DNA of 64,000 nt, taken from positions 55,799 to 119,798 of the IMG/VR virus record IMGVR_UViG_3300031994_000001. One strand, given 5' to 3'. The DNA is from a virus (lineage: Duplodnaviria; Heunggongvirae; Uroviricota; Caudoviricetes). Each line of letters begins with the position of its first letter. Position 1 is the first letter of the stretch. The position numbers and the translations under genes are program-made. Below are positions 1 to 43,323 of the stretch, one piece after another. The notes under the pieces are model-generated. The model worked only from the letters and a program-made list of their open reading frames with translations. It was not told the DNA's origin and searched no databases.

Positions 1-190
1 CACATAGAAAAACTCAACCGTATTCTCTTTTTTTGAGGTTGATATTTGTTTGACAATAACGGCATCGCCCGTTTGGAGTTTGGTTTTCCAACCGAGTACA
101 TTCAGCCTGCCCTGCGAGGTTTTCAGTTCTTTCTGCGTTATGGGCTGTATTGCAAGTTTCTCGTATGTTTCTGTGCTGTATATTTCCATA

Positions 191-834: not shown

Positions 835-1899
835 TTACCAAAACAGTGTTGTTTTATCAACGGGTTCAACACTGTCGGGTGTTTCATCCAATCTTTTATC
901 CAATCTTTTATCCAATGCTTTATATTTCGGTCTGACCCATATTTTGACAGAATCCTTGAACGGGGGATTTTTGAAGTAATCCTTTTTCAAAGGCTGCTTT
1001 ATGTTCGGGTTGCGAATAATCATATACAAGTCTAACGGTTTCAGCCATTTACTTTCAGCCCGTTTATCAGTCAGAGCATTGTCATAATGTTTCAGTCTGT
1101 TATAACTGAAAAGGTTGTTTCGTCTGCCCGTAATACGGGACGCTTCCTCTCGGTCTTTGTTGTATAGTATGAGTACACCGTCCTCAATCCAAGATTTGTC
1201 TTTTTTGTCATTTTCGTCAATTCCAACCAAAAGCATTTCCTCATAGTTGTACTTGAAATAATCTTCGGCTGTCACAAACACATAGCAAACGTGTCTCCTG
1301 CCGTCTCTTGTGCAACCAAACACAATGTCACCCGTCTGAAGCCTCTCTTTTGGAGGTACGGATTCGTTAAACAGTCGTTCCTTGCTGACGGGTTGTATGT
1401 TGAGTTTTTCTTCAACAGCATTGCCTTTATAATTAAAAACCATTTTCGCTTTCGAATTTGGAAATGTTTTGAAATATTCTACATCCAATGGTTTTTCTAA
1501 AAGTGGCACTCTGTAAACATACATAACCCTATTATTAAGATTGTTGTCATATTTAACAACAAAATGCCTTGTGAAAACGGGTTTTCCGCCGCGACCAGTA
1601 ACCCCAGACAAATAAAAAATGAATATTCCGTCACGCAACGCACTATCTTTTTCATTTGAAATGGGTTCGTCAAGCAATTCATCATACGCACCGCTTTTTA
1701 CGTCATCGTATGATACAAACACTCCATTTTCTTTTTCGTTTTCATCGCCAACAACAACAATATCACCCGTTATGAAATTATTTCTCATTTCAGATGGAGT
1801 TTTATACATTTTACATTTTGTAAAATCAGTAAGTCTGTCTTTTGTGATTGGCTGTATATTGAGTTTTTCGTTAAATTTCTTTGTATCAAGTATTTCCAT
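835..1899 (-). CDS. Leader-family protein with two tandem 'TGDI' domains separated by an internal leader copy
   Basis: Start moved to MEILDTKKFNEKLNIQPITKDRL (1899); internal AVEEKLNIQPVSKERL. Confidence 0.8.
   Translation of the reverse strand: MEILDTKKFNEKLNIQPITKDRLTDFTKCKMYKTPSEMRNNFITGDIVVVGDENEKENGVFVSYDDVKSGAYDELLDEPISNEKDSALRDGIFIFYLSGVTGRGGKPVFTRHFVVKYDNNLNNRVMYVYRVPLLEKPLDVEYFKTFPNSKAKMVFNYKGNAVEEKLNIQPVSKERLFNESVPPKERLQTGDIVFGCTRDGRRHVCYVFVTAEDYFKYNYEEMLLVGIDENDKKDKSWIEDGVLILYNKDREEASRITGRRNNLFSYNRLKHYDNALTDKRAESKWLKPLDLYMIIRNPNIKQPLKKDYFKNPPFKDSVKIWVRPKYKALDKRLDKRLDETPDSVEPVDKTTLFW
886..915. repeat. 12-bp in-frame tandem duplication (ATCCAATCTTTT x2.5) encoding LDKRLDKRLD
   Basis: Read directly from sequence. 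Confidence 0.85.
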
Positions 1900-1900
1900 A

Positions 1901-2359
1901 TTATATTTTTCTTTTCCAAATGATGTCTGACGAATCAAACGGTGGGTTGATGAAATAATCTTTGGTCATAGGCTGCGGCAGTTCTTTCGGTCTGTATATA
2001 ATGTCAATGCGCTGTTTGATAGTGTCCATTCTGTTGAGGTTGTCGTCATACCGTTCAAGCAAAAGGTAAATACATCTGCTGTAATAATGCGGGTCTTTGC
2101 GTATAAGCGCACCGTCTTCGCTTATCGGCAATCCGCCGCCTTCCAATCCGAGCAGTTTTGCACAGTCGTTTTCTCTGTATCCGTCTTCGGACATAAAGAC
2201 ATAATGTCGTGAAGAACCATCGTGCCTTGTGACAAGAACAATGTCCCAATCTCGCAACTGTTCCTTCAACGTGTAGGGCTTTGTATTGTGAAGCCTCTCC
2301 TTGCTGACTGGTTGTATGTTGAGTTTTTCGTTGAACTGCTTTGTGTCAAGTATTTTCAT
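1901..2359 (-). CDS. Leader-family protein, single TGDI-type domain
   Basis: MKILDTKQFNEKLNIQPVSKERL; DWDIVLV, DGALI, DNL, ends DYFINPP..IIWKRK like paralogues. Confidence 0.8.
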   Translation of the reverse strand: MKILDTKQFNEKLNIQPVSKERLHNTKPYTLKEQLRDWDIVLVTRHDGSSRHYVFMSEDGYRENDCAKLLGLEGGGLPISEDGALIRKDPHYYSRCIYLLLERYDDNLNRMDTIKQRIDIIYRPKELPQPMTKDYFINPPFDSSDIIWKRKI

Positions 2360-3288
2360 AATCCGTCTCTTTTCCAAATGATTTCCGCTTCTTCCGTTGG
2401 CGGGTCTAAAACATAATCCGCGTCAATTTTATCGGGTTTTTCTTTCGGACGGAGAATTTGTTTTACCGCAAATTGTTTACCCAAAGATGAACTGCCGCTG
2501 ATTTTGGTGTCAAGGTTGTCATTGTATCGGTATGCTTTTGTATATTTTGGCACGTTTCTGTTGATGCTTGCATCATATTCCATACGGATAAAAATGCCTT
2601 CGTTTTTGAAAAAAGATAAGTCTGATACAAGGTCGAACATTGTGATATATCTTTTCAATTCGTCAAACGGAATGTAAACATATTCAAGCCCGTTGTCAAT
2701 CAGCAATATGTCGCCGAACTTGAGCCTCCGTTTTGGAGGCAGTGTTGCGTTGTGCGCCTTTGCCAACATTTCCTTTGTGACGGGTTGTATGTCAAGTTTC
2801 TCGTCAATATGTTTTTCCTTGTAATTCCAAATTTGTTTCGCTTTCGGATTCGGGAATGTTTTAAGGTAATCTTCCGTCAACGGATTTTTCAAAAAAGGAA
2901 CTCTGTAAACATACATAACTTTGTGCGTACCAATGCCTTCGTATTCGAGTTCGTCATTGAAATCCTTTACATAACTTCTTGTAAAAAACGATTGTTCCCA
3001 ATACACAAACACGCCGTCAACACAATTGACGATTTCCGATTCACTTGTCAATTTTGGGAAGAAATGCGTGATTTCGTCATATACACCGCTTTTCACGTCT
3101 TTGTAAGATATGTATGTTCCGTGCAGGTTTTCTTTCTCGTTACCCACAACAACGATGTCACCCGTTTGAAAATTGGCACGCATTTCGCTTGCTGTCGGAT
3201 ACGGTACAACAAGTTTTTTCAGTCTGTCCGCTGTGACGGGTTGTATGTTAAGTTTTTCGTTGAACTGTTTTGTATCAAGTATTTCCAT
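2356..3288 (-). CDS. Leader-family protein, two TGDI-type domains with internal leader copy
   Basis: MEILDTKQFNEKLNIQPVTADRL; internal HIDEKLDIQPVTKEML. Confidence 0.8.
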   Translation of the reverse strand: MEILDTKQFNEKLNIQPVTADRLKKLVVPYPTASEMRANFQTGDIVVVGNEKENLHGTYISYKDVKSGVYDEITHFFPKLTSESEIVNCVDGVFVYWEQSFFTRSYVKDFNDELEYEGIGTHKVMYVYRVPFLKNPLTEDYLKTFPNPKAKQIWNYKEKHIDEKLDIQPVTKEMLAKAHNATLPPKRRLKFGDILLIDNGLEYVYIPFDELKRYITMFDLVSDLSFFKNEGIFIRMEYDASINRNVPKYTKAYRYNDNLDTKISGSSSLGKQFAVKQILRPKEKPDKIDADYVLDPPTEEAEIIWKRDGL

Positions 3289-3290: not shown

Positions 3291-3776
3291 TCAGTCTCTT
3301 TTCCAAATTGTTTTTGCCTTTCGTATCGAAGCGTCTTTGAAATAATCCTCGGTAAGAGGCAGGCTTACGTGCGGGTTACGCATAACCGCCCAAATGCCAT
3401 ATTTCTTGCCGCGCATTAGGTTTGAATCCAACTCCGCGAGGTTTGTGCGGGTGAAGTGGGGGTTGTCGTTGACAATGAACATAGGTTTCGCGTCATAGAA
3501 AATGAACATTCCCTCCTTGTAGAATTTCGTTTTCCAAAGAGGAATGTTAAATCCGAAATATTTGTCGTACAACTCCTTTTCGATGTCGCTTTTTGATATG
3601 AACACACCCAAATGCTTGTGGTCTATGTGACCCATAATGGCAATGTCTCCCGTAAGAAAATTGGCACGCATTTCACTTGCTGTTGCATACGGAATAACTC
3701 GGCTTTTCAGTCTGTCTTTTGTGACGGGCTGAATGTTCAGTTTCTCGTTTAATTGTTCTGTATTCAATATTTTCAT
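3291..3776 (-). CDS. Leader-family protein, single TGDI-type domain
   Basis: MKILNTEQLNEKLNIQPVTKDRL; SEMRANFLTGDI. Confidence 0.8.
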   Translation of the reverse strand: MKILNTEQLNEKLNIQPVTKDRLKSRVIPYATASEMRANFLTGDIAIMGHIDHKHLGVFISKSDIEKELYDKYFGFNIPLWKTKFYKEGMFIFYDAKPMFIVNDNPHFTRTNLAELDSNLMRGKKYGIWAVMRNPHVSLPLTEDYFKDASIRKAKTIWKRD

Positions 3777-6223: not shown

Positions 6224-8020
6224 ATGTATTACAATTCTATTAATGAATCACAAGTCCTCGCTACTTGGGGACAGCACATTAAGGAGAGTTTGGGCATTAA
6301 CGATGAAAGCAAGTTGGCTTGGATGTCAAAATATGCTTATATGCACGATTTGCACGACAAGAAAATGCTTAACGAGTCTGTTGACGGTCACGCCCATTTG
6401 AATCCTAATATGACAATCGGCGGTATGGGTGCTATTCAGTTCCCAGGTGCTGCTACAAACAACACTTACGACCGTTCTCTCGCAGGCAGCGGTGATAATG
6501 TTTACAGCGTGCTTCCTCTTGCTCTGCAAGTAGCCGCTCAAACCATCGCTCTTGACCTCGTTCCCGTTGTTCCTATGCAGGGACCTCACGGACTGTTGCA
6601 ATACCTTGACTATGTTTACGAAGGTGGTCGTCTCCACAACCAAGGTGGTAGCATCTACACAAGCGTAAACAACGAGAACTACGCATCACCTTATATGATT
6701 AAGGCTATGCTGTTCAATGTCACCGAAGGCAACGGCAGCGATGCTGAAAAGCACATTTTCCGTCCAAACGCTAAATACGTTTTGACCGAAGACGGCGAAG
6801 TTATGGAAGACTTCGATTTGACTTACATCTATCCTAACCGTATTGACGGTAAGCCTCTCTTCCGCGTGATTGAGAAATCACACTACAACGGACAGAAGAT
6901 GGTTGGCGGAGAAAATGCAAGCACTCCTATCTACCGTATCTTCGAGAACTTGAAAACCACAGAGAACCCAAGCGGTATCTACGGTATCAAGTGCATCGGC
7001 AACGGTTCTGACGACATCGAACTTACTGTTGAGTCAAGTAAGGGAACTGAAGAAGTCCGTGCTTTTGAAGACCACATCACTTCATTCAGCGGCGAAGGCT
7101 TCTTGAAAGACACCGTTACTTCAAACAACCCTTACACAAGGGAAATGGGCGAAGCAACCCCAGGTCGTAAAATCGGTTTGAAATCTTACACTTTGGATGT
7201 TAAGGCTACAACCTTCCAAGTTGATTCTGCCATCACTCGTGAGCAAGTTCAAGACTTGAAGCAATTCGGTATTGACGCTGTGGCTCAAGCAGAGGCTGCA
7301 TTGGTGAACGAACTCACCCAATGTATCAACAAGGTCATCCTTGAAAAGATGTTCAACCTCGGCGCACTCAACGCTAAACAACTCGAAGAAGTTGAAGGCT
7401 TCAACCAAGTTTCCGCTTGGTTCACCAACGGCACTCCTACTGCAACTACCAAAGAAATTTGGTTGGGTGACAAGTATGACAAAGAAGGTGAATTGGTCGG
7501 CAAAATCACAACCAAAGTTCCTTACACTAACGTAACGGGCGGCGGCGAAGTGATGGGTACTGTCCAAAGACGTGTGATGACTAAAATCATCGCTGCTTCC
7601 AACATCATCGCAGTTCGTGGTCGTAGAGGTGCAGGTACTTTCGCTGTCGTAAGCGGAACTATCGGAACAGCACTCCAAGACTGCGCAGGATTCGTTCCTT
7701 ATCCATTGAGCAACACCATTTCCGCTAACGGAAACAGCCTTTACCCAATCGGTGCATTGGCAGGCATCAGCATCTATGTTGACCCCAATATGGCATTCAA
7801 CGACACCCGCGTTTGCGTTGGTCGTAAGGGTAAAGAAAACGAGCCAGGCATCGTGTTTATGCCTTACTTGATGGCTGACAAAGTTGAAACCACTTCAGAG
7901 TTCACAATGGCTCCAGTCATTTCTCTGAAATCTCGTTTCGCAGTTGTTGAGGCGGGTATCTACCCACAAACTCAATACTACACCTTCGGCATCAAACTCG
8001 ATGGTGTGAGCCTCGTGTAA
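6224..8020 (+). CDS. gp23: Major capsid protein, T4 gp23-like
   Basis: AAQTIALDLVPVVPMQGPHGLLQYL, QVQDLKQFGIDA, ELTQCINKVI, IVFMPY, PVISLKSRFA match the gp23 family. Confidence 0.93.
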   Translation: MYYNSINESQVLATWGQHIKESLGINDESKLAWMSKYAYMHDLHDKKMLNESVDGHAHLNPNMTIGGMGAIQFPGAATNNTYDRSLAGSGDNVYSVLPLALQVAAQTIALDLVPVVPMQGPHGLLQYLDYVYEGGRLHNQGGSIYTSVNNENYASPYMIKAMLFNVTEGNGSDAEKHIFRPNAKYVLTEDGEVMEDFDLTYIYPNRIDGKPLFRVIEKSHYNGQKMVGGENASTPIYRIFENLKTTENPSGIYGIKCIGNGSDDIELTVESSKGTEEVRAFEDHITSFSGEGFLKDTVTSNNPYTREMGEATPGRKIGLKSYTLDVKATTFQVDSAITREQVQDLKQFGIDAVAQAEAALVNELTQCINKVILEKMFNLGALNAKQLEEVEGFNQVSAWFTNGTPTATTKEIWLGDKYDKEGELVGKITTKVPYTNVTGGGEVMGTVQRRVMTKIIAASNIIAVRGRRGAGTFAVVSGTIGTALQDCAGFVPYPLSNTISANGNSLYPIGALAGISIYVDPNMAFNDTRVCVGRKGKENEPGIVFMPYLMADKVETTSEFTMAPVISLKSRFAVVEAGIYPQTQYYTFGIKLDGVSLV

Positions 8021-12784: not shown

Positions 12785-13778
12785 CGTCCGATACGCTTTG
12801 AAACATAACGGGGACTTCCATATCCCCTCCGCAAGATTCGCAAGTCACGTGAATGTTAGGACTCATACCGACCGTGGCGTTCATTTTTTCCACGAATCTG
12901 TAAATGAGCGTGTACTTCGTAGTGTCCCAATTCTCGAACTCGGTAGCCATATTGAAAATGTCCTTGTCTTTCAACTGTCTCCATTCGCGTCTGAAGAAAG
13001 GAATCATTTGGACGAGGGATTGTTCCCACTCCTTTTGGTTCTGCGTTCTTTTGATAGCCCAATCCCTCACGAATGTCGTGACACCGATTGTAGGCGGCGC
13101 GATTTGGATTGTGCCGTAGTGTTTCGTGCGGATGCTGTAACACTTGTTGTCGGGGTCGTAGTATTTCTCCAACTGCGGGTCGGGTTCGGGGCGTTCAAGC
13201 ATATCTGCGGTCAAACGCACCTCTTTCTGCGGGTGACAGCCTGGGGTCTTGCACGCGCCATCGGGAATCGGGATGTTGATGACCGTCTCGCCGTTCTTGA
13301 ATGTGAGTTCTTGGATTTTCTTGATGAGGTAGAAACGGTCGTGTTCGAGAATGTCCTTATAGGAGCCAGGCATATTGCCGAACATAACCTTCGTGCATTG
13401 TGACAGAATGTAGTTCATTTTGTCAATAATGTCGTTGGGGTTGCTCTCATCCATCTGCGAGTATTCGCGGATTTCACCGACACGGCAGGCGCGGATATGC
13501 ACTTCGAAGTCGTCACGGTAGAAACGACCTTGTGACGGGAATCCTGCGAGCGGCAGATGTATGAAGTTCACGAGTTGGTTCATTTTCGCAATCTGCGGGT
13601 CGTTGTTCAGTTCCTCGCGGCTCATAGGCTTGTTGATACCCATAGGGTTCTCAACCCTGCCCAAGTCTGTGACAACGGGTCTTTGTTCGGGGGCTTCGTT
13701 GGCAGGTTCTGCTGCGCCGCCCTCTCCAAACTCACGAAGCAAATTAGCCTCGTATTCTTTGTCTGTTTTATTGTCCAT
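12702..13778 (-). CDS. Baseplate hub subunit / tail assembly protein, T4 gp26-like
   Basis: LPSxG-like LAGFPSQGRFY, IRACRVGEIR, DRFYLI, C-terminal CESCG ... FKSLF. Confidence 0.6.
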   Translation of the reverse strand: MDNKTDKEYEANLLREFGEGGAAEPANEAPEQRPVVTDLGRVENPMGINKPMSREELNNDPQIAKMNQLVNFIHLPLAGFPSQGRFYRDDFEVHIRACRVGEIREYSQMDESNPNDIIDKMNYILSQCTKVMFGNMPGSYKDILEHDRFYLIKKIQELTFKNGETVINIPIPDGACKTPGCHPQKEVRLTADMLERPEPDPQLEKYYDPDNKCYSIRTKHYGTIQIAPPTIGVTTFVRDWAIKRTQNQKEWEQSLVQMIPFFRREWRQLKDKDIFNMATEFENWDTTKYTLIYRFVEKMNATVGMSPNIHVTCESCGGDMEVPVMFQSVSDDGTEVRGGFKSLFVPTISDRFDELLEE

Positions 13779-13798
13779 ATTATTTTTCGGTTAAATTG

Positions 13799-14008
13799 TT
13801 AAACTAATTCGAGTTTCTTGTAATTGGTTTCGAGGCTTTCCATCAGATACCCCGACACGTTCTTGCCGTTTTGGAGTATGCTTTCGTAAATCTCCTTCGG
13901 AACATTGAGGTACTTGTTGACCGAGCCGTCATTGTATTTTATGACGAGTTCCTTCAGCACTTCCGAATAGGTTATGCTCGTTACCGTTTTTGCGGAATCT
14001 ATTAACAT
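13799..14008 (-). CDS. KTSC-domain protein
   Basis: SITYSEVLKELVIKYNDGSVNKYLNVPKEIYESI matches KTSC pattern. Confidence 0.75.
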   Translation of the reverse strand: MLIDSAKTVTSITYSEVLKELVIKYNDGSVNKYLNVPKEIYESILQNGKNVSGYLMESLETNYKKLELV

Positions 14009-15144
14009 AGCGACAGTTTTATTTTCCTTGATTCAACGTCAATGAAGTTGATTTTCACCTTAACGTGGTCTCCGATTTTGATTGTGTTGTTCAGCGGCAG
14101 CGTGCCGATGACATTGTAGGTGAGTTGGACGAGCATAAAGTTCTTTGTCGTGCTGATTACGCAGCCGTCAAGGATTGTGTTCTGCTTGAACTCCTTGGCG
14201 ATTTTGGTATTCCAAAGTTCCTTGGTGTACCAATTCTGCGTAAGCATAAACTGACCGTTCTGCTCGAAGTCAACAAAGAATTTGACGGGGGTTTTCTCAA
14301 TCTCAATCTCGTTGTTGTTGAACATATTTCGGGTTTCCTCGTCCATATCGGAATAAAGCAGTTTGCCCGCGAGACTTCCGTTGAACACAACAAGCACGTA
14401 GTCGTGCTTCTTCATTGTGATTATGCCCTCGTACTCGGTGCTTCTGTCCTCGTCCATAACGGTCTTGATTGCTGCGGGTCGTATGATGTCAAGGAACGCC
14501 GTGTGTGACACGACAACCATATCCCTGCTTCTGTTGTACATTGTCGGGATAACCATACGCTCCTCTCCGAGTATGGAGGTGTAATCGTTGAGACGGTAGA
14601 ACGAAGCCGTAGAGCCTGGCAGGAAGCACCTAACGCCTTGTATGCTGACATAGTACCCGCCGTTGACACACTCTTCGATTTTAGCCGCGTATGCGTGCGA
14701 TGTGTCGTGGGATAATGCGGCGGCAATCAGTTCGGACTTTGCTGACAGTTTCAGCGAATCCTTGATTGAGATGTTGATGCCGTTCTTCATATTGGCTGCA
14801 ACTGAAATCTTGTACTTCACACCCTCGTCAAACGTGTTCACGACTTCCTCCGATTCTTCCTCAACGGACATTTGGTAGTCGTATTTCTTGTTCAACTGAA
14901 TGTTCAGTTTGCCGTCTTTCTTCTCAACGATTGTGTTGTCAATAAGTCGGCTCTGCTTTGAACGCTCAAAGTCGGAAATGCTTTCAATGTCAGACCCTCC
15001 GAGCGATGCACGGTAACGGTTGATACATTCCAATACGTAAGGTTCTTTTGAGATGATTTTTTCGCCGTTCTCGCACGGCACATTGATAATTTGTTCATCA
15101 AGCGGATTCTCCGCGTTGTGTACTTTAACTTTTTGAATAATCAT
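14002..15144 (-). CDS. S1/OB-fold repeat protein (ribosomal protein S1-like)
   Basis: AKIEECVNGGYYVSIQGVRCFLPGS ... MVVVSHTAFL; third repeat GDHVKVKINFIDVESRKIKLSL. Confidence 0.75.
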   Translation of the reverse strand: MIIQKVKVHNAENPLDEQIINVPCENGEKIISKEPYVLECINRYRASLGGSDIESISDFERSKQSRLIDNTIVEKKDGKLNIQLNKKYDYQMSVEEESEEVVNTFDEGVKYKISVAANMKNGINISIKDSLKLSAKSELIAAALSHDTSHAYAAKIEECVNGGYYVSIQGVRCFLPGSTASFYRLNDYTSILGEERMVIPTMYNRSRDMVVVSHTAFLDIIRPAAIKTVMDEDRSTEYEGIITMKKHDYVLVVFNGSLAGKLLYSDMDEETRNMFNNNEIEIEKTPVKFFVDFEQNGQFMLTQNWYTKELWNTKIAKEFKQNTILDGCVISTTKNFMLVQLTYNVIGTLPLNNTIKIGDHVKVKINFIDVESRKIKLSLC

Positions 15145-15188
15145 CAATTTAGGTTTTAGATGGTTAGTAATAGGTTTATTTTTCTTTT

Positions 15189-15318
15189 TATTTATACACG
15201 GGATTCCTCGGTTCGGTTTCGGGTTGCCGACCGCCGTTCCGACTGTTTCCGTAATTTATTTATAATCCTGCTTTTTCGACTTTTTTGCGCCAATCCGTTG
15301 GCGTTGGCGGTATAAATA
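15189..15318. promoter_or_regulatory. Divergent late promoters (TATAAATA minus at 15189-15196 and 15257-15264; plus at 15311-15318)
   Basis: Exact consensus boxes between divergent S1-like and LRR genes. Confidence 0.65.
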
Positions 15319-15334
15319 CTAAAATTGTTTTTAT

Positions 15335-16195
15335 ATGGAAATACTGAAATCCGAACAATATATAAACGAGAAACTGAACATACAGCCCGTATCAAAGAAT
15401 AGGCTTTCTGATTGGAACAATGACAGACTTGAGAGTTTGAAAGAACCGCAAGTTGATAAATTGGCTATGGATTTTATAAGAGACTATAATTTGAAATGGA
15501 ACACAGCCACGGGTGGATATGATTCTTTCGGTGATGTCAAAGTTGATACAAGAATTATAGAAAATGGTAAATTGACAATAAAATTCGGTCATATACAAGG
15601 CAACTTTGCTGTTGAGTATAAAAATATCATTTCACTTAAAGGTTCACCGATAAAAGTTGACGGAAATTTCTATTGTGTCAACAACAAAATCGAATCATTG
15701 GTGTATTCACCAAAGGAAGTCGGCGGAAATTTTATTTGCAATAATAACAAATTGAAAAACCTTAATTGTTTACCAAAAAAAATAGGAGGTGGCATTCAAG
15801 TTCTATATAATGAACTTGAATCACTTGAAGGCGCACCAAATAAAGTCAATGGAACTTTTAATTGTAACCATAATAAGCCATTGAAAACTCTTGCAGGCGC
15901 ACCGCAAAAGGTAGGAAAAGGTTTTGGCTGTGAAGACTGCAATCTCATCTCGCTTAAAGGCGCACCGCAGGAAGTCGGTGGTGATTTTGATTGCAGCGAC
16001 AATAAATTAACTTCATTGGACGGCGCACCGCTAAAAATAGGTGGGATGTTTAGATGCAATGGCAACATTTTGAAATCAATCGAATGTGAAACACAAGAGG
16101 TTCTTGGAAATTTTGTGTGTATAAACAATAAAGACAAAGACCTTGTTTTACCAAAACGAAAGCCAAGTTGGATAAAAGGAAGAATAATAGAATAA
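15335..16195 (+). CDS. Leader-family LRR-like solenoid protein (~8 repeats)
   Basis: MEILKSEQYINEKLNIQPVSKNRL; ~22-aa GAPxxVGGxFxCxxNxLxSL repeats; C-cap LVLPKRKPSWIKG. Confidence 0.85.
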   Translation: MEILKSEQYINEKLNIQPVSKNRLSDWNNDRLESLKEPQVDKLAMDFIRDYNLKWNTATGGYDSFGDVKVDTRIIENGKLTIKFGHIQGNFAVEYKNIISLKGSPIKVDGNFYCVNNKIESLVYSPKEVGGNFICNNNKLKNLNCLPKKIGGGIQVLYNELESLEGAPNKVNGTFNCNHNKPLKTLAGAPQKVGKGFGCEDCNLISLKGAPQEVGGDFDCSDNKLTSLDGAPLKIGGMFRCNGNILKSIECETQEVLGNFVCINNKDKDLVLPKRKPSWIKGRIIE

Positions 16196-16198: not shown

Positions 16199-17626
16199 AT
16201 GGAAATACTGAAAGCAGACAAATACATATCGGAAAAATTGAACATTAAGCCCGTCACAACAGATAGACTTGTTGATTGGGTTAAAGTAAAGGATTTTATA
16301 AAGAAAAACAATCTCAAATGGAATCCTACAACAAAAAGGTATGATTGTGAGGGAAATGTTAAAGTGTATGGCAATCTGATAAAAGATGGAAAATTTATAA
16401 TTAAGTTTGGTCGTGTAAAAGGTGATTTCAATTGTAGTCACAATCAATTGTCATCACTTATTGGCGCACCCGAATATGTAAGTGGAGATTTCAATTGTTC
16501 GTTCAACAAACTCGAAACACTTGAAGGCGCACCGCAGGAAGTCGTTGATGATTTTTATTGTGATTGCAACGAACTTGTATCATTGATGGGCGCACCAAAG
16601 AGCATAGGGGGTGATTTTTGCTGTGAAAATAATCCAAAACTTACAACTCTTAATGGCGCACCGCAAACAGTTGGCGGTGGTTTTGATTGCAGCAACTGTG
16701 GACTTAAAAACCTCGTTGGTTCACCACAAACAGTTGACGCTGATTTTAATTGCAAAAAGAATAAACTTGAATCACTTGAAGGCGCACCGCAAACAATAGG
16801 TGGTAAATTTGATTGTACCGAAAACAACTTGGAATCTCTTGTCGGCGCACCACAAACAGTAGGTGGCGATTTTGATTGCAGCGACAATAAATTGACATCG
16901 CTTAATGGCGCACCGAAAATTGTAAAAAAAGTATTTGCTTGCTGCAATAACAATCTGACAACAATCAATGACGCACCGCCAAGCGCACTGAACTATTATT
17001 ATTACGGAAACCCGATAACCGAAAAATTGAACATTAAGCCCGTTTCAAAGGATAGGCTTGGCTCTTTTTCAAAAGAACCCGAAGTTGATGATAAAACAAA
17101 ACAATTTATAAAAGACAACAATCTCGTATGGAATCCAGTTACACGAAACTACGATTGTAACGGAAATGTAAAAGTTAATAGCGATATCGTTGAAGACGGA
17201 AGGCTTACTATCAGATTCGGTTATGTAAAAGGAAATTTTAATTGTGCCTACATAGGACTCGAAACACTTGACGGTGTACCGAATAAGGTCGGCGGATATT
17301 TCGCCTGCAATGGAAATCATCTTACTTCGTTGAATTATGCGCCGAAGGAAGTTGGCGGTTATTTCGATTGCAAAAACAACAAACTTGTGTCACTCGAAGG
17401 CTCACCGAAAACAGTTGGAGACCATTTCACTTGCAGCAGTAATTTCATAGAATCGCTCAAAGGCGCACCGCAAAAAGTTGGAAAGTATTTCGCCTGCGCA
17501 AGCAACTATTTGAAATCCCTTGATAACGCCCCGCAGGAAGTCGGCGGAGACTTTTATTGTTCCGACAATCCACAACTTGTACTGCCGAAAGAAAAGCCAA
17601 GTTGGATAAAGGGCGATTTGATTTAA
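16199..17626 (+). CDS. Leader-family LRR-like protein, two complete units (~9 + ~5 repeats) joined by internal leader
   Basis: MEILKADKYISEKLNIKPVTTDRL; internal PITEKLNIKPVSKDRL followed by a second N-cap. Confidence 0.85.
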   Translation: MEILKADKYISEKLNIKPVTTDRLVDWVKVKDFIKKNNLKWNPTTKRYDCEGNVKVYGNLIKDGKFIIKFGRVKGDFNCSHNQLSSLIGAPEYVSGDFNCSFNKLETLEGAPQEVVDDFYCDCNELVSLMGAPKSIGGDFCCENNPKLTTLNGAPQTVGGGFDCSNCGLKNLVGSPQTVDADFNCKKNKLESLEGAPQTIGGKFDCTENNLESLVGAPQTVGGDFDCSDNKLTSLNGAPKIVKKVFACCNNNLTTINDAPPSALNYYYYGNPITEKLNIKPVSKDRLGSFSKEPEVDDKTKQFIKDNNLVWNPVTRNYDCNGNVKVNSDIVEDGRLTIRFGYVKGNFNCAYIGLETLDGVPNKVGGYFACNGNHLTSLNYAPKEVGGYFDCKNNKLVSLEGSPKTVGDHFTCSSNFIESLKGAPQKVGKYFACASNYLKSLDNAPQEVGGDFYCSDNPQLVLPKEKPSWIKGDLI

Positions 17627-21380: not shown

Positions 21381-23075
21381 ATGGCAGGCTTTATAACCAC
21401 AAGAAAAGACCCAAGGACATACGCCACGACCAACCGAGTGTCGAAGATGCTGCGTAAGATAAGCAACCTCGGTATGGACTTTGACGGCAAGGTGTTCAAA
21501 AACTCAAAGGCTATCGGTCTATACGATGTTGACCCGACAACTCCGAACACGCAGATATTCCAATACGAGGATTCGATATACGACATATTCCAAGGGTTCT
21601 CGTACACCGACCCGTCTATGCACAAGAACGTGTCAATCTATGACCAACGCTATGACGACAGAAAGAGAAACGAGTTGCGCAGACTTGCCGTGCAGGACGA
21701 GATTGAGGATATTCTTGACATTATCACCGATGACGCGATATGCTACAACAAGAACGGTGTGTTCTGTGAATTGCTGTACGACAAAACACTTTTGTCTGAC
21801 GAACTGAACGAGGAAATCAACGACATATTCAACAGCATATATTCTTATTTAGGATTTTGGGACCAGAATATGGCGTGGGGCTATTTCCGCAAGTTCCTCA
21901 TAGAAGGATTCCTTGCGTTTGAAATAATCTATGACGGCGAGCCTAACAAACCCGAAACGCAGCGCAATATCATCAACTTCAAGGAACTTGACATCCTCTC
22001 GTTGATACCCGCCGTTTCGCAGGAGACGGGTGAGAAGATTTGGATTCAGTATCCGAATGACCCTGCCCGCCAAAGGGTGCTTTTCGATTCGCAGGTCATC
22101 TACATAAGTTACGCGCAGTTCGACAGCGCGAGCCGTGTGTCATACGTTGAGCGTCTTTCAAGGGCGTTCAACCTGCTCCGTATTATGGAGGCTACCCGTA
22201 TTATGTGGGCTGTCACCAATTCAAGTTACAAGACATTGTTCACAATCCCCGTGGAGAGTTATCGTAACCGTGGTCAGCAGACCCTTGCGCAGATGATGCA
22301 CAACTACAAGGAGATTATTGACTTCAACGAGGAAAGCGGTGAATTGTTTGTCAATGGAAGACCTATGATGCCGTTCAGCAAGGAATATTGGTTTCCGAGT
22401 GTCGGCGGAGAAAGTCCGAGCATACAGACGATTGGAAATGACGGTCCAGACCTCTCGGATACGGAAGCCCTTAACTATTTCAAACAGAAACTTTGGCAGA
22501 CAAGCAAGATTCCGTTCACCCGTTTCGACAACACGCAGGGCAGGGGCAGTTACGCGCTCAACACGGAATCAATGATGCGTGAGGAAGTGAAGTTCAACAA
22601 CTTCGTAAACCGTCTCCGCAGCATATTCAAGGAAATGCTCGTCAAGCCTATCTACATACAACTTTGTCTGAAGCATAAGGAGTTTTCAACCGATGTTTCA
22701 TTCCGTAACTCACTCACCCTTGACTTCGTGTCGGATAACGTGTTTACCGAAATGCGTGAGATTGAGGTGTTGCAGAAGAAATCCGAGTTCATTTCCGCTA
22801 TGATGCAGAACCTTGTTACGCAGGACAGCGATGGCAATGACGTTCCTTACTTCGACCTTGACTTCCTTGTTATGAGATTCAGCGGACTGTCACAAGAGGA
22901 CATTGAATCCAACAAGAAATACAAAGAGCGCAAGAAACTTGAAAAAGAGGGTTATAAGGATGAGGATATTGAGGAAATACTGAACGGCGAGCCGAAGAGT
23001 AAGTTCAAAGCCGAGAAGAAAGAGGAAAAGAAAGACGAGGGCGAGGAAGAAGAAGGCGGAGGGTTCTCACTCTAA
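21381..23075 (+). CDS. gp20: Portal protein, T4 gp20-like
   Basis: LRRLAVQDEIEDILDIITDDAI, FRKFLIEG, SYVERL.RAFNLLRIME, EYWFP, REEVKFNNFVNRLRSIF. Confidence 0.9.
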   Translation: MAGFITTRKDPRTYATTNRVSKMLRKISNLGMDFDGKVFKNSKAIGLYDVDPTTPNTQIFQYEDSIYDIFQGFSYTDPSMHKNVSIYDQRYDDRKRNELRRLAVQDEIEDILDIITDDAICYNKNGVFCELLYDKTLLSDELNEEINDIFNSIYSYLGFWDQNMAWGYFRKFLIEGFLAFEIIYDGEPNKPETQRNIINFKELDILSLIPAVSQETGEKIWIQYPNDPARQRVLFDSQVIYISYAQFDSASRVSYVERLSRAFNLLRIMEATRIMWAVTNSSYKTLFTIPVESYRNRGQQTLAQMMHNYKEIIDFNEESGELFVNGRPMMPFSKEYWFPSVGGESPSIQTIGNDGPDLSDTEALNYFKQKLWQTSKIPFTRFDNTQGRGSYALNTESMMREEVKFNNFVNRLRSIFKEMLVKPIYIQLCLKHKEFSTDVSFRNSLTLDFVSDNVFTEMREIEVLQKKSEFISAMMQNLVTQDSDGNDVPYFDLDFLVMRFSGLSQEDIESNKKYKERKKLEKEGYKDEDIEEILNGEPKSKFKAEKKEEKKDEGEEEEGGGFSL

Positions 23076-29835: not shown

Positions 29836-30282
29836 TTATTTGTATGGGTTAAAAAATTCATTGACCTCAACGGCGAGACTCTTTGCTATCAATCCGTTGT
29901 GGTCGAAGTGGCGGGCGTTCAGCCATTCAAGTATTCTTGACATAAAGTCGTAGTGTATCTTGTCCCCGAAATGGCTCATAGGAACTACAAGACCTTCCTC
30001 GTCAAACGAACCCGTACCCGTAGGGCAGAGCATTTTCTTCATTTCGTTCCGCTCATCCTCGGTCATAGATGACATAGGGCGTAGGCAGGGTTTCCAATCC
30101 AACACGCTGCCCAACTCATATCCGCTGTCGGGTTCTGCTTCGAGTTCAAACATACCAAACGATGCGTTGAGTGTGCGAAGCACTGCGGTCACGCCGTACT
30201 TGTTTCGCATAACAACTCCAAACGGAATCCTGCCGCACAAGTCTCTGACAATAAGTTTTTTCGTTTCTTTTTCCATATTCAT
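29836..30282 (-). CDS. Family-B paralogue (DLCxRLPY / KPYLRP / HFDYRGLI)
   Basis: DLCGRIPFG, KPCLRPMSSMT, WLNARHFDHNGLI. Confidence 0.8.
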   Translation of the reverse strand: MNMEKETKKLIVRDLCGRIPFGVVMRNKYGVTAVLRTLNASFGMFELEAEPDSGYELGSVLDWKPCLRPMSSMTEDERNEMKKMLCPTGTGSFDEEGLVVPMSHFGDKIHYDFMSRILEWLNARHFDHNGLIAKSLAVEVNEFFNPYK

Positions 30283-30304: not shown

Positions 30305-30348
30305 AATATAATAAAAAAATCCGAAAACTACATTTCGGATTCTTTTTT
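30305..30348 (-). promoter_or_regulatory. Motif-2 element overlapping a terminator-like hairpin
   Basis: TTCGGATTTTTTTATTATATT; TCCGAAA...TTTCGGA inverted repeat. Confidence 0.5.
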
Positions 30349-31080
30349 AATGTACGGATTGTTGTTGTCAGTCACCTTTATCGCAAGACCGCGTTTGATT
30401 AGACCACGGTAGTCGAAGTGGTGTTTGTGCAGCCAATCAATTGGCACTGTGCAGTATTGCGCCCAAATGCCCCAACTTTTTCTGAAATCCTCGCACGATG
30501 AGGGGTCATCGAAGTTCGGATATTTTGTTCTGTCCGCCGCTGTGAGTTCTTTCGCTTCCTCATCGGTCATAGAATCCATACTGCGCAAATACGGTTTTAT
30601 GTCACAAAATCCTTTTCTGAATGCCTCAATCTCAATGCCCTTAATCGGAATCACCATACGCTCATTGTCGTTATCGTACACTTCGGCGATTACACCAAAC
30701 GGGATTCTGCCCGACAAATCGGTAATGAGCAAATCTTTGTCGTTGGTTGTTTCAACACCTTCGATTTTGATTTCCTTATTAACGCCGCATATCAGAAGAG
30801 CCTGCTGCAACTCGTGGACATAGTGTATGATGTTGAAGTCAACCTCGCAGCATACGCCGCTTACCGTTATTTGGAACAGACCGCCTGCCCCCAATTTAGC
30901 CTTGAATCCGTTGTACTCCAATATCTCTTTTGTGAGCGGAAGCGGGCTGATTTCTTTGGCGAGGACGTTGTTCGCTATGTTCGTCATTACACCGTTTGTG
31001 TAAACCTCTCTAATTATGGCGGGCTTTCCTATTTTGTCAACGAAAACCCAATTGCCAATCATAAGTTCTTTCGTGTTCAT
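30328..31080 (-). CDS. Family-B paralogue with extra N-terminal domain
   Basis: MNTKELMIGNWV...HYVHELQQ domain, then DLSGRIPFG, KPYLRSM, HHFDYRGLI. Confidence 0.8.
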   Translation of the reverse strand: MNTKELMIGNWVFVDKIGKPAIIREVYTNGVMTNIANNVLAKEISPLPLTKEILEYNGFKAKLGAGGLFQITVSGVCCEVDFNIIHYVHELQQALLICGVNKEIKIEGVETTNDKDLLITDLSGRIPFGVIAEVYDNDNERMVIPIKGIEIEAFRKGFCDIKPYLRSMDSMTDEEAKELTAADRTKYPNFDDPSSCEDFRKSWGIWAQYCTVPIDWLHKHHFDYRGLIKRGLAIKVTDNNNPYIKKESEM

Positions 31081-33161: not shown

Positions 33162-33371
33162 TTATAATTTAAGACCCGAAAACTTGTCGAACTTTATTGT
33201 TATTATGTCGAAACATTCGATTTTAGTCACTTTGCCGAACTCCTCCATAGTCTCGAATGAAATCTGCTCGCCTTTGTCAATCAACGGTTTCCATCTTTGC
33301 CAAAAGAAGTTTCTGACATAGACATAGTACCTGCCGTTTGGCTTTCTTTCAAGTTTCGCTTTTCCTTTCAT
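33162..33371 (-). CDS. Hypothetical protein
   Basis: Translationally coupled ORF. Confidence 0.55.
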   Translation of the reverse strand: MKGKAKLERKPNGRYYVYVRNFFWQRWKPLIDKGEQISFETMEEFGKVTKIECFDIITIKFDKFSGLKL

Positions 33372-33763
33372 ATCCCTTTTATATTTGTGTACATATCATC
33401 GGGGGCTTCCAAGGCGAGACCCTTTTCTATCAGTCCACGGTAGTCAATGTGGATTGAGTTCAGATAGTCAAGTTTCTTTGCCATAATGTTGCCAACGGTG
33501 TCGTTGTTGAAACTGTTGTATTTTTCCGTTTCTTCTTTTGTCGCCGATGTCAGCGGTCGCAGATACAGCCGTATGTCTTCTATGTCCAGGTCATCATTGT
33601 TCTCACCGCAGACCAAGTTGTCGCAGGTGTTCACAATACACAAATAGTCGTCAAAAGGTTCATACTCTCCATCGGAAAACGGTGATTCCCAATGGAATGT
33701 CGGGTTGTACGGCAACCTCGCGCAGAGGTCTTCAATCATAAGTTTCAAATGGTCGCTTCTCAT
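33368..33763 (-). CDS. Family-B paralogue
   Basis: DLCARLPY, LYLRPL, DYLNSIHIDYRGLIEKGLALEAP. Confidence 0.8.
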   Translation of the reverse strand: MRSDHLKLMIEDLCARLPYNPTFHWESPFSDGEYEPFDDYLCIVNTCDNLVCGENNDDLDIEDIRLYLRPLTSATKEETEKYNSFNNDTVGNIMAKKLDYLNSIHIDYRGLIEKGLALEAPDDMYTNIKGI

Positions 33764-34287
33764 TGTTGTTGGTTTTTTGTTACATACATATCGTAATAGC
33801 ATTTTGACATTTTCAGACCGATGTTGGTCGTGGATTGAATATACTTCACGGCGTGAGGCCAGTCCATTGCGCTAACTTCCTTGAACTGTTCCTCCGTCAG
33901 CAATTCTTTCGGCAGTTCCTCCTTCAGCATTTCATCCAATTCCTCCATTGTCATATCATACATACCTTCGGGGGCTTCAATTGCCAATCCTCTTTCAATG
34001 AGGTGGTTTATGTCATAATGGTTTTCAATGAGGTATCGCATATTGTCAGATACCGTCTTGAAAGTTTCCCATCGGTAACATTCCATACCGTTCTCGTTGA
34101 ACTTGCGCAGGTACGGCTTGATGTGGTATATGTCCATACCGACAAGCAGTTTGTGGGCGTTATAAACGTTCAGCACAATATCCACGTCATCACCGTTCTT
34201 GTGGTAATGCGCGTACTTCACTTTCGGGTTGTACGGCAACCTCGCACAGAGGTCTTTAACCAATAATTGTTTTTCTTCCCGTGTCAT
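33760..34287 (-). CDS. Family-B paralogue with C-terminal extension
   Basis: KQLLVKDLCARLPY, KPYLRK, GLAIEAPEGMY, then ~60-aa extra domain. Confidence 0.8.
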   Translation of the reverse strand: MTREEKQLLVKDLCARLPYNPKVKYAHYHKNGDDVDIVLNVYNAHKLLVGMDIYHIKPYLRKFNENGMECYRWETFKTVSDNMRYLIENHYDINHLIERGLAIEAPEGMYDMTMEELDEMLKEELPKELLTEEQFKEVSAMDWPHAVKYIQSTTNIGLKMSKCYYDMYVTKNQQQ

Positions 34288-34290
34288 ATC

Positions 34291-34647
34291 TTATACAATT
34301 CCTTTTTGTTGTAAATACTCGGTTAGTTTAAGGCACGATGCAACCGATGGTCCCATTTCATCATCGTCATAACAGTAGGCTTCGTCACACAATGTACTCC
34401 AACCAATATCGCCCTTTATATAATTGTTCATTGCTTCGGTAATTGCGGTATAGTATTCCTTTTTTTCCTCGGCATCACTCTCGTTAAGCGATAGGTCAAT
34501 GTTAAAAAGGAAAATGTTGCGGTAGATGTGGCAGGCTTCTTTTACTGTTAAATCACGCTTCATCTGTAACCCATACATATACGGATTTTTCTCCGACCTA
34601 CGAAACGCAACGACTGGGTTAAGTTTTATTCTTCTTTTAAGTTCCAT
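34291..34647 (-). CDS. Hypothetical protein
   Basis: ORF in operon. Confidence 0.6.
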   Translation of the reverse strand: MELKRRIKLNPVVAFRRSEKNPYMYGLQMKRDLTVKEACHIYRNIFLFNIDLSLNESDAEEKKEYYTAITEAMNNYIKGDIGWSTLCDEAYCYDDDEMGPSVASCLKLTEYLQQKGIV

Positions 34648-34650
34648 AAC

Positions 34651-35451
34651 TTAATCATTTTTATACATTCCTTCGGGGGCTTCCACGGCGAGACCTTTTT
34701 CTATAAGACCCGCTGTGTCAAAATGTTTCTTGGCAAACCAATCCTGCACCTTTTTCATATCCGCTATTTTTATCATACAGTCGTAATGGCTCGGTGTGAC
34801 TTGTTGGTAGTTTACTATTGAGATGGATTCCGAGATATTGTCAAACTCTTTGGCTTCATCGTCTGTCATAGTTGTAAGAGGGCGCAGATAAGGTCTGACT
34901 TCATCAAGGTCAAGGTGGGCGACAGTGACTGTGTTGCATTTCATTACGCCGTTCTTTGTGAATACAAGTTCAAGTTTGGAATCGAAATTCGGGTGTTTTA
35001 CGATATTCATCATCAGACCGTATGGAAGACTGGCGCACATTTCAGAAAACATAAGTTGTTTCTCGCTGTCGGAAAGACCGCATTCTATGTTGTACAATTC
35101 ATCGGAAGCCTCTTGCGCCAACCCCATTTCAATCAGACCGTTGTAGTCGAAATGATGGGAAAGCAGCCAATGCGACAGTTCCATAAGATAATCCATAGAT
35201 TTGCCTTCAGTCCAAAGGTTGTTGTACTTTCCGCGCAGAGCGTCATATTCCTCACGCTCTTTATTTGTCATTTTTGACATACTGCGCAGCATCGGCTTGC
35301 AGGCTTCAATCGGGTGGCTTCCGTTGATAGTCATATCGTTTCCCTCAACAGAAAACACCTCGCAAATGTCCGCCCCGCAGTTCACCATAACGTGATACGG
35401 CATACGGGCGCACAGAACATTGTATAGCAGTTTCAAGTATTTTGTTTCCAT
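34651..35451 (-). CDS. Family-B paralogue with two tandem domains
   Basis: LCARMPY..KPMLRS..HHFDYNGLI, then MCASLPY..RPYLRPL..HFDTAGLIEKGLAVEAPEGMY. Confidence 0.8.
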   Translation of the reverse strand: METKYLKLLYNVLCARMPYHVMVNCGADICEVFSVEGNDMTINGSHPIEACKPMLRSMSKMTNKEREEYDALRGKYNNLWTEGKSMDYLMELSHWLLSHHFDYNGLIEMGLAQEASDELYNIECGLSDSEKQLMFSEMCASLPYGLMMNIVKHPNFDSKLELVFTKNGVMKCNTVTVAHLDLDEVRPYLRPLTTMTDDEAKEFDNISESISIVNYQQVTPSHYDCMIKIADMKKVQDWFAKKHFDTAGLIEKGLAVEAPEGMYKND

Positions 35452-35455
35452 ATTC

Positions 35456-35779
35456 TTAACGGGGGTTTTGTGATTTGTGATAAATTTCGTTGCCGTTTTG
35501 CTTCCATAGATTGACAACTATGATTGGGTTTCTGTCAATCTGCGATGACATAAGATATGTGCCTTCAACATAGGAATCGTCCGATTCAACGATACATTTA
35601 TCACCCTCTTTGAACGCCTTTTGAAACATCGCTGTGCGTCCGTTAAATTTTTGGTCGAACATAGCAAGCACATATTTCTGCCCGTTGTTTGTCGGGACTT
35701 CCCTTATTTTACCGTGTGCGGAATAGGATAGGGTTGCCAAGGCGTTGTCCTTTTCGCCATAAATGACTGTCGTTTTCAT
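35456..35779 (-). CDS. Hypothetical protein
   Basis: ORF in operon. Confidence 0.55.
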   Translation of the reverse strand: MKTTVIYGEKDNALATLSYSAHGKIREVPTNNGQKYVLAMFDQKFNGRTAMFQKAFKEGDKCIVESDDSYVEGTYLMSSQIDRNPIIVVNLWKQNGNEIYHKSQNPR

Positions 35780-36252
35780 ATTGCTCTATTTTTTGTTTGA
35801 TACATTTCTTCGGGTGCTTCGATTGCCAACCCTTTCCCGATGAGACCACGGTAGTCGAAGTGGTGTGCGTTGAAAAAATCCTGCATTTTGCTCGGCAGTT
35901 TTTCTTCCAACTGTATGGGTTCAAGCAGTTCATCGTTTCTGAACGAAAAATCGTGGATTTCTTGCAGGCAACCGTTCAGTTCGCGTTCTTCTTCCTCGGT
36001 TATTGAACGGATAGAACGCAGGTACGGGCGGACATTCTGCATAGAGTGAACCGTGGTCAAACCAGCCCCGTCAAAGTACAGTTCAAAGTCGGTCATTTCA
36101 TCATTGAGGAAAACAGCCCCGCTGAACACGGCATCGCGCCAACCGAAACAAACATCGTCCACTCGGTATATGGAACATTTCACACCGTGGCGCAACCGCC
36201 CGCAAAGGTCGTCAAAAAGCAACCGCTTTTCTTCCAATAGCATTGTCTCCAT
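35776..36252 (-). CDS. Family-B paralogue
   Basis: DLCGRLRHG, RPYLRS, HHFDYRGLIGKGLAIEAPEEMY. Confidence 0.8.
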   Translation of the reverse strand: METMLLEEKRLLFDDLCGRLRHGVKCSIYRVDDVCFGWRDAVFSGAVFLNDEMTDFELYFDGAGLTTVHSMQNVRPYLRSIRSITEEEERELNGCLQEIHDFSFRNDELLEPIQLEEKLPSKMQDFFNAHHFDYRGLIGKGLAIEAPEEMYQTKNRAI

Positions 36253-37785: not shown

Positions 37786-38424
37786 TCAATGTCTGAAATC
37801 TGGTTGAAGCTCTTCCTCATATTGCATTGGGCAGTTTTTGAATATGTCGTGGCGATGCCACACATTCCCAACCGACCATCGGGATAGGTCGCCTTTAAAT
37901 CTTGAATCGCAAAACATATACGACATTTTCGTAACGCAAGACACATTCCAGTTGGAAATGTCGCCGTTGAAATCCGAATTTTGGAACATATTCTCCATAT
38001 TTAAAACTTTCCCGACATTCCATTTTGATATGTCGCCATCAAAGTATGAATTGTAAAACATATATGACATATTTGTAACATTGCCCACATTCCAGTTGGA
38101 AATGTCGCCGTTGAATTTTGAGCTTTGGAACATACCAGTCATATTTTTCGCATTTCTGACATTCCATTCAGATATGTTTCCATCAAAATCCTTTAATGTG
38201 GAAATGAAAAACAAATATGAGAAGTTCGTTATGCAAGAAACATCAATGTCGTTCAAGTTGCAAAAAAAGCCATATTCTTCAATGTGGTTTTCTATGCAAA
38301 TAATCAGTTCGCCTTTTGTTTTTGGCTTGTATTTGTATGGGGACAGCGCAGCAAGCCTCGTTTTTGTAACTGGCTTGATGTTGAGCTTCTCGTTTATATA
38401 TCGGTCGGCATTAAGTATAAGCAT
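37786..38424 (-). CDS. Leader-family protein with DUF285/BspA-like repeats
   Basis: MLILNADRYINEKLNIKPVTKTRL; FxGDISxWNVxxVxNMxxMF repeats. Confidence 0.85.
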   Translation of the reverse strand: MLILNADRYINEKLNIKPVTKTRLAALSPYKYKPKTKGELIICIENHIEEYGFFCNLNDIDVSCITNFSYLFFISTLKDFDGNISEWNVRNAKNMTGMFQSSKFNGDISNWNVGNVTNMSYMFYNSYFDGDISKWNVGKVLNMENMFQNSDFNGDISNWNVSCVTKMSYMFCDSRFKGDLSRWSVGNVWHRHDIFKNCPMQYEEELQPDFRH

Positions 38425-39762: not shown

Positions 39763-40146
39763 TCACTCTCCTTTGTTTTTGTTCTTCATTGCGTTCTTGA
39801 AATCCTTGATAAAACGGGTTGTATTGACACTGCCGTCATATTCGCAACAGTGGTGGAACTCGTTGTACTCGTAGTTCAGATAGTTCGATGCGTTCTTTTC
39901 AATCCACTCGCAAGCGAACTCAATGTCAAAGTCCGTTGTGTCTCTCCGCGCCAATGTCGGCATCACAGCCTTTGTCTTGAACTCTGCAAGCGATTCGTAG
40001 TTGGTTAGTCTGTCATATATGAAGTCCTCAATCACGGGCATAACGGTATCAACCAATTTGTCAATGGCTATTTTGCTTATAGCCTGCTTTATGGCATCCC
40101 GCGTGTTTACATAAAGCGGGGTCTTGTCTATTTCTTCCCTATTCAT
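39763..40146 (-). CDS. Hypothetical protein
   Basis: ORF in operon. Confidence 0.6.
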   Translation of the reverse strand: MNREEIDKTPLYVNTRDAIKQAISKIAIDKLVDTVMPVIEDFIYDRLTNYESLAEFKTKAVMPTLARRDTTDFDIEFACEWIEKNASNYLNYEYNEFHHCCEYDGSVNTTRFIKDFKNAMKNKNKGE

Positions 40147-40633: not shown

Positions 40634-40640
40634 TGTATTG

Positions 40641-42106: not shown

Positions 42107-42110
42107 AACT

Positions 42111-42506: not shown

Positions 42507-42516
42507 AATTGTTGAT

Positions 42517-43313: not shown

Positions 43314-43323
43314 AATTGTAGGT

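Follow-up and report, generated by a model that had tools for sequence, protein, structure and literature searches.

A two-part N-terminal tag whose second part recurs between the units of multi-unit proteins of an uncultured T4-type phage

The 64,000-nucleotide stretch of DNA analysed here, referred to as the window, comprises positions 55799-119798 of a single 413,021-base contig of an uncultured T4-type phage (IMG/VR record IMGVR_UViG_3300031994_000001). About 50-60 proteins of this 413-kb genome carry a two-part N-terminal peptide, the tag, and its second part is also found inside several proteins. Two of them are encoded on the minus strand of the window. The open reading frame (ORF) at 835-1899 encodes a protein of 354 amino acids with two TGDI-type units, which align with single-unit paralogues and are modelled by AlphaFold2 as two domains. 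Its N-terminal tag is composed of part 1, MEILDTKKFNE (1867-1899), which resembles a T4 capsid-targeting sequence and has Phe-Asn-Glu as its last residues, and, directly after it, part 2, KLNIQPITKDRL (1831-1866). Inside the same protein AVEE-KLNIQPVSKERL stands in frame at residues 161-176, and its portion from VEE onwards (residues 162-176; 1372-1416; 51.4 bits in the profile described below) marks the border of unit 1 and unit 2. The ORF at 2356-3288 encodes a protein of 310 amino acids that also has two TGDI-type units and has a homologue of identical architecture (P0004). It begins with MEILDTKQFNE followed by KLNIQPVTADRL (3220-3288) and contains HIDE-KLDIQPVTKEML in frame at residues 160-175, the portion from IDE onwards (residues 161-175; 2764-2808; 44.7 bits) again lying at the unit border. 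Single-unit paralogues with a full tag are encoded on the same strand. The 152-residue protein at 1901-2359 is among the nearest single-unit relatives of the second TGDI units and shares 32% identity with unit 2 of 835-1899 over 141 residues, and the 161-residue protein at 3291-3776 is 35-36% identical to the first units from end to end.

The original prediction had described these two internal copies as a trait of the TGDI family. Both were recovered in frame on the minus strand, and the pattern is indeed seen in TGDI fusions, but it is not confined to them. A 356-residue protein that combines a TGDI unit with a Fib_succ_major unit has its N-terminal part at 1-189 (minus strand), and its internal copy, VME/KLNIQPVSKERL, lies just past the window edge at position 55465 of the contig (a slash marks the boundary between the last residue before part 2 and the residue that follows; contig coordinates are given below as genome positions). 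On the plus strand, a 475-residue protein (16199-17626) consists of two DUF285/LRR-like units, both 50-57% identical to single-unit paralogues, and its internal copy, ITE followed by KLNIKPVSKDRL (17015-17059), had not been flagged before. Longer chains are present as well, with three units at genome 345480-346916 and four units at genome 52040-53953, the latter with motifs at residues 11, 177, 322 and 489. The fusions are thus heterogeneous and include TGDI with TGDI, TGDI with Fib_succ_major, two DUF285/LRR-like units, the chains of three and four units, and others. For the TGDI domain itself no named family was obtained through an ESM Atlas feature search and no Pfam family was found; a Foldseek search of its AlphaFold2 model against the PDB returned nothing at E ≤ 0.001, with only weak matches to small beta-barrel proteins.

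In N-terminal copies, part 1 of the tag has the form M-[KE]-I-L-x4-[YF]-[IFV]-x-E, and part 2, K-L-N-I-[QK]-P-V-[ST]-K-[DE]-R-L, follows directly after the Glu. The whole 413-kb genome was scanned with a profile of this Glu and the following 12 residues at a threshold of at least 26 bits. The scan yielded 73 copies: 13 are internal, 54 are preceded by a Met at a distance of 10-14 residues, and the remaining 6 are unclear. Long open frames contain about 149,000 other positions, none of which scored between 0 and -23 bits, and this empty gap excludes a chance origin of the copies. If the first residue of part 2 is numbered 0, Glu occupies position -1 in 47 of the 48 N-terminal copies of a strict set. 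The most conserved portion of the tag is the 12 residues past this Glu, with I(+3) and P(+5) in 100% of the copies and K(0) and L(+1) in at least 96%, and the N-terminal tag is shared by proteins with unrelated cargo domains. At 38434-39510 (minus strand) a 358-residue protein starts with a degenerate tag, MKILKFNDFKNNNYNIKQITKSARG, next to an intact copy at 37786-38424, and may represent a decaying copy.

The tag is built from two modules that can occur apart from each other, which is new here. Three proteins encoded outside the window on the minus strand (genome 178758, 192643 and 344945) have part 1 only and continue, like their T4 counterparts, with a small residue, namely MEIYKFEQFIAE/S, MKILSLDQFIAE/G and MTKILKSTEYIKE/A, respectively. 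The second of them has a separate part 2, VNE/KLNIQPITADRL, at residue 117, 105 residues downstream of its part 1. The 13 internal copies are the converse, part 2 without part 1.

The internal copies sit exactly between units, as had been proposed for the two TGDI proteins. When the proteins are cut at the motif, the pieces match single-unit paralogues end to end, and the halves accordingly also exist as separate genes (1901-2359 and 3291-3776 in the window, and a fused and split pair with another contig described below). In the AlphaFold2 model of the protein 835-1899, which was built on 10 homologues, residues 30-159 and 179-334 form domains with predicted local distance difference test (pLDDT) values of 70-88, and values below 50 occur in three segments only: residues 1-29 with the tag, residues 160-178 with the internal copy, and the C-terminal tail. 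The internal copy of this protein is therefore predicted to lie in a low-confidence, flexible linker. The absence of M-x-I-L at internal sites, which the original prediction had noticed before the two flagged copies, extends to all 13 internal copies of the genome. The score of positions -12 to -5 was +10.7 for N-terminal copies under leave-one-out, whereas internal copies, at -15.8, were close to random protein segments, at -16.8. The preceding hydrophobic-x-Glu is kept, as predicted, with Glu at -1 in 13 of 13 internal copies and Val, Ile or Leu at -3 in 12 of 13.

Neutral decay of the internal motif relative to the N-terminal copies would have spoken against a retained function and was not seen. 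Part 2 scored on average 45.6 bits in internal and 45.1 bits in N-terminal copies (Mann-Whitney p = 0.84). Ten two-unit homologues of 27-41% identity, taken from different metagenomes, were aligned (mean column identity 32%); the internal residues E164, K165, L166, I168, Q169, P170, K173, E174 and L176 are invariant, and their counterparts in the N-terminal tag are equally so. More distant contigs (L003 and L019) encode rows of proteins with two to four units whose internal copies also score highly. Judged by these alignments, the internal copies do not appear to be decaying. An assembly error or two separate genes can be ruled out as the source of the fusions, since the joints have neither stop codon nor Met and the architectures recur in independent assemblies, that of the 354-residue protein on 8 contigs (P0001, 96% identity). 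The in-frame Met 12 residues upstream of the internal motif of 835-1899 is Gln or Thr in the paralogues, and we take it as a coincidence. In L003, whose capsid protein is 88% identical, the region 13475-15900 encodes a TGDI unit, an internal tag copy and then only 34 residues, followed by a TnpB/Cas12f-like ORF (14263-15900); the second unit seems to have been truncated there by a transposon insertion.

Close relatives hold fused and split versions of the same genes, which was likewise found here for the first time. Units 2-4 of the four-unit protein, which are fused to unit 1 in the genome analysed here, have a gene of their own on contig L017, which derives from a different sample; this gene (P0006, 93.6% identical) carries a full tag, and the gene in front of it joins unit 1 to another unit. 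At the junction, the DNA of the four-unit gene is chimeric: its left side corresponds to the internal junction in L017, its right side to the N-terminal tag in L017, and the crossover lies inside 18 shared nucleotides, AACGAGAAACTTGACATA. This tag-to-tag crossover removed one unit, a stop codon and M-x-I-L in a single step. Because it falls inside the tag-coding repeat, the form of the junction is partly a mechanical product of recombination, and the loss of M-x-I-L is partly a by-product and not a selected outcome. The reverse kind of event appears on the low-coverage contig L018, where the orthologue of 835-1899 lacks unit 1 between the N-terminal and the internal copy, an apparent unit deletion.

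Part 2 is confined to a narrow group of phages. A scan of IMG/VR gave true copies on two other contigs only, and the coding pattern E-K-L-x-I-[QK]-P-[VI] was found neither in LR756500.1, with a capsid protein 44% identical, nor in a 75-kb fragment of a phage with an 80% identical capsid protein. N-termini that resemble part 1 are present in a 411-kb relative. In related phages large paralogues flank the capsid gene (L004 7043-9025 and 11973-15682; L003 7833-9812), which have repeated ...EKYGV... modules and a C-terminal nuclease-like (homing-endonuclease-like) part; in the window, tagged cargo genes take the position that these paralogues hold in the relatives. A second large paralogue family is recognized by the N-terminal stretch ...LL[VI]KDLC[AG]RLPYGV..., of which a simple pattern detects 16 copies genome-wide, 9 of them in the window, with members at 29836-30282, 30328-31080, 33368-36252 and 40139-43761 on the minus strand.

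The phage encodes a protease of the type that processes T4 proheads. A gp21/S77 prohead protease domain lies outside the window at genome 292434-292781 (PF03420, 49.5 bits, above the curated cut-off), at the start of a protease-scaffold fusion protein of 647 amino acids (genome 290916-292859, minus strand). The middle part of this protein is made of 12 tandem 14-residue repeats, [HY][SN]DYLAE[QK]L..., each with a Leu-x-Glu. The fusion and its repeats are also encoded by the 411-kb relative (L020 6386-8365; capsid protein 49% identical) and probably by LR756500.1 (L016 18043-19941). In the window, the gp23-type major capsid protein is encoded at 6224-8020 on the plus strand (Pfam PF07068 Gp23, 6.2e-30) and has a putative maturation site, L49-N50-E51/S52 (6368-6379), upstream of its conserved core. 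Across 45 homologues of 50-96% identity E51 never changes and S52 hardly ever does. A sequence comparison of the capsid protein with solved structures gave no match, so that the site is not alignable residue by residue to T4 gp23. By capsid protein the nearest records are uncultured huge phages and the Lak phages of Prevotella, at 32-44% identity. The window also encodes a T4-type portal (21381-23075) and tail tube and baseplate proteins, and the tagged genes cluster near the capsid, portal and tail genes.

The head protease of T4 prefers Leu/Ile-x-Glu. Members of the S77 family in T4, phiKZ, 201phi2-1 and SPN3US cleave after Glu (PMC5694885), and the targeting propeptides of T4 have a length of 10-20 residues (PMC5694885). 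As the S77 protease, the scaffold repeats, the capsid site LNE/S and the Glu specificity agree, hydrophobic-x-Glu is the likely cut site in this phage. On the same grounds part 1 would be a capsid-targeting propeptide of the T4 type whose last residues form the hydrophobic-x-Glu site of a gp21-type head protease. We propose that part 2 is a separate module that the protein would retain after cleavage and expose as its new N-terminus. The tagged genes are cassettes in tandem arrays, among which recombination at the tag-coding repeats brings about fusions, splits and exchanges. One part 1 would suffice to load a fused product into the prohead, which would explain why part 1 is absent from internal joints, and each joint keeps the likely cut site together with part 2 in a linker predicted to be flexible. 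The head protease would then most likely cut the precursor into single units, each beginning with KLNIQPV. What the sequences and the model show is the anatomy of the tag, its conservation, the linker position of the internal copy, a protease encoded in the genome and the origin of fusions by recombination; head loading and cleavage of the joints we infer from the tag motif, the repeats of the scaffold and the site in the capsid protein, and a role of part 2 is likewise inferred. To this account as a whole we assign a probability of roughly 60%.

Part 2 is probably not needed for cutting as such, because the capsid protein and the part-1-only proteins do without it. Our leading guess is that it provides a function to each unit after cleavage or serves as an extended recognition element of the protease. 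Alternatively, it could be a packaging or retention element of each unit, or a part of the protease recognition site, and either would qualify the reading of the original prediction that the KLNIQPV half is under selection independent of packaging. Going further, one may speculate on a two-part address, in which a removable loading peptide is followed by the retained KLNIQPV[ST]K[DE]RL on each released unit that acts after maturation, and recombination re-sorts the payloads of the polyproteins; the retained peptide could then direct exit through portal and tail, placement in the host cell or a turnover timed by the N-terminal Lys. We regard this extension as rather doubtful.

Several observations weigh against the proposed account. 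The phage is uncultured and the tagged proteins are known here from sequence alone. One internal copy has Thr at -3, and one N-terminal copy has Lys at -1 (MQANPNEQKK/KLNIQPV, genome 334895), from which it follows that part 2 can persist without a cut site. In some relatives part 1 is much shortened (MNE/KLNIQPI, MNTEQLKE/KLN), which would fit part 2 and not part 1 as the loading signal. Aligned in register, the tag and the scaffold repeat also show a weak likeness (E-K-L-N...D-x-L) and agree at 4-6 of 13 positions. Both have K-L-N directly behind the presumed cut, and the scaffold repeats rank in the top 0.1-1% of non-member profile scores; this likeness would tie part 2 to packaging. Furthermore, hydrophobic-x-Glu could itself be part of a longer docking motif. 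If so, the fused proteins might stay full length, with the internal motif as a repeated docking or packaging peptide, through which each unit would touch the scaffold core or the capsid on its own, or simply as a conserved linker, and with Glu-Lys-Leu as part of the binding motif. The likeness to the scaffold, the copy with Lys at -1, the relatives with almost no part 1 and the better conservation of part 2 in comparison to part 1 all suit this explanation. It is nevertheless unlikely, since the Glu and the hydrophobic residue at -3, nearly constant among internal copies, define the site class of the S77 proteases, of the 12 scaffold repeats and of the capsid site, since the motif lies in a linker predicted to be flexible and accessible, and since the three part-1-only proteins suggest that, as in T4, part 1 is enough for loading. 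With regard to an encapsulin-type cargo-loading peptide, which docks to the inside of an HK97-fold shell by binding the shell protein, a complex prediction for the mature capsid protein (residues 52-598) and a mature TGDI unit (residues 12-161) gave a score of 0.00, which we counted neither way.

The codons of the tag bear on the question of whether the peptide or the DNA is conserved. Synonymous codons vary in the tag at Leu, Val, Ser, Thr, Gln and Arg, and because they vary at most positions selection acts on the peptide; a DNA or RNA element as the sole explanation of the tag is ruled out by this variation. Some codons, also to be set against the proposed account, are unusually uniform, with AAA in 59 of 62, AAC in 39 of 43 and CCC in 52 of 62 cases at genome-wide frequencies of 57%, 63% and 24%, respectively, and the Ile codon ATA is used in 39 of 62 tag copies. 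This suggests that exchange between copies at the DNA level adds to the uniformity of the tag, and it is also consistent with a constraint at the nucleotide level. The absence of CCG for Pro has a simpler cause, because the genome is without any CCGG site and Pro-Val would read CCG-GTN. The 413-kb genome as a whole strongly avoids restriction sites, with 0 GATC, 0 CCGG and 27 GGCC at expected numbers of about 1551, 887 and 887. The internal copies might be functionless by-products of recombination that are kept uniform by gene conversion from the N-terminal copies. A crossover inside tag-coding DNA, the unit that L018 seems to have deleted between its two copies and the codon uniformity at Lys, Asn, Ile and Pro would all be expected in this case. 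However, conversion tracts would often carry M-x-I-L, which none of the 13 internal copies has, the motif does not vary among homologues of 27-41% identity that come from separate metagenomes and have flanks saturated with changes, and the codons of Leu, Val, Ser and Thr vary freely. We give this explanation little credence, clearly less than that of a docking peptide.

Equally improbable appears to us that the tag is an address to a place other than the head, such as the virion exterior, a cell compartment or an export route, and that the internal copies serve that pathway. The Fib_succ_major and DUF285/LRR-like cargo, typical of surface proteins of Bacteroidota and Fibrobacter, would be in line with such a destination. 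Part 1, in contrast, matches the capsid-targeting propeptide of T4 in length and form, its end is of the site class expected for the head protease, the tagged genes are neighbours of the head and tail genes, and the tag lacks a hydrophobic core and a lipobox. A Sec or lipoprotein signal in particular was ruled out, as the tag has neither a hydrophobic core nor a Cys. Ribosome skipping of the 2A type, a eukaryotic mechanism, was set aside because its NPGP motif is absent.

The processing of several units from one fused precursor by the head protease, which we favour, shares features with several known systems. As in viral polyproteins, for example those of picornaviruses and retroviruses, several folding units are encoded in one ORF, and a protease-type site is repeated in the accessible linkers between these independently folding units. 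Unlike those viruses, this is a double-stranded DNA phage with ordinary separate genes whose fusions are facultative, the units occurring as single genes as well; processing would take place inside the prohead, and the cutting is predicted from the sequence. In the literature searched, we found no mention of KLNIQPV and no report in which a capsid-targeting sequence and phage polyproteins are brought together in such a way.

Head and ejection proteins of phiKZ, 201phi2-1 and SPN3US are processed at several A/S/G-x-Glu sites (PMC5694885, PMC10052503). In these phages, as predicted for the one described here, an S77-type protease with Glu specificity acts on many head proteins, and packaged proteins form paralogue families. 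More than one site in a single substrate is on record for the phiKZ group, where the additional sites fall within long, discarded propeptides, whereas the products predicted here are whole folded units that all begin with one conserved peptide. The class of site differs too, being V/I/L/F-x-E here and A/S/G-x-E in the phiKZ group. The hyperplastic internal-protein loci of T-even phages are shuffled by recombination at flanking repeats (Repoila et al. 1994, as cited in PMC2839356 and PMC12373910). According to the accounts in these citing articles, recombination at short repeats lets close relatives acquire, lose and swap cargo genes that share a leader, much as we observed. As far as the same accounts describe it, the T-even exchange concerns intergenic promoter/stem-loop cassettes, while the crossover reported here lies inside the coding sequence of the tag and makes or resolves in-frame fusions.

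The T4 capsid-targeting sequence is the model for the loading of head proteins and a tool for the packaging of foreign proteins. From this model the present system differs by its very large payload, by an address with two separable parts and by cassettes that are both single and fused, the latter probably being resolved by the protease. If the cutting holds true, one loading signal would carry several cargo units in fixed proportion, and the conserved post-cleavage peptide would point to a second step of sorting or recognition beyond that of T4. From the tag crossover it can be seen how modules are shuffled at a short coding repeat that serves as their joint, while every product is still correctly tagged.

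The likeness to T4 extends over several components. In IPI, IPII, IPIII and Alt of T4, as here, a short N-terminal peptide of 10-20 residues that ends in hydrophobic-x-Glu is found on unrelated proteins; both phages have a gp21/S77 protease, the capsid protein of each is of the gp23 type and has a Glu site of its own, and in both the cargo genes are diverse, non-essential-looking and arranged in variable arrays. We know of nothing that is conserved past the cut site in T4, whereas this phage has a conserved 12-residue module there. While T4 has a handful of tagged proteins, this phage has about 50-60, and unlike in T4 the cut site and part 2 recur inside multi-unit, polyprotein-like proteins and the protease is fused to the scaffold. 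In T4 internal proteins the capsid-targeting sequence is removed by gp21 (Mullaney & Black 1996, as summarized in PMC5694885 and PMC3012670). The system described here appears to be a variant of T4 capsid targeting and gp21 processing, set apart by the conserved module behind the likely cut site and by polyprotein-like fusions that are both made and resolved at tag repeats.

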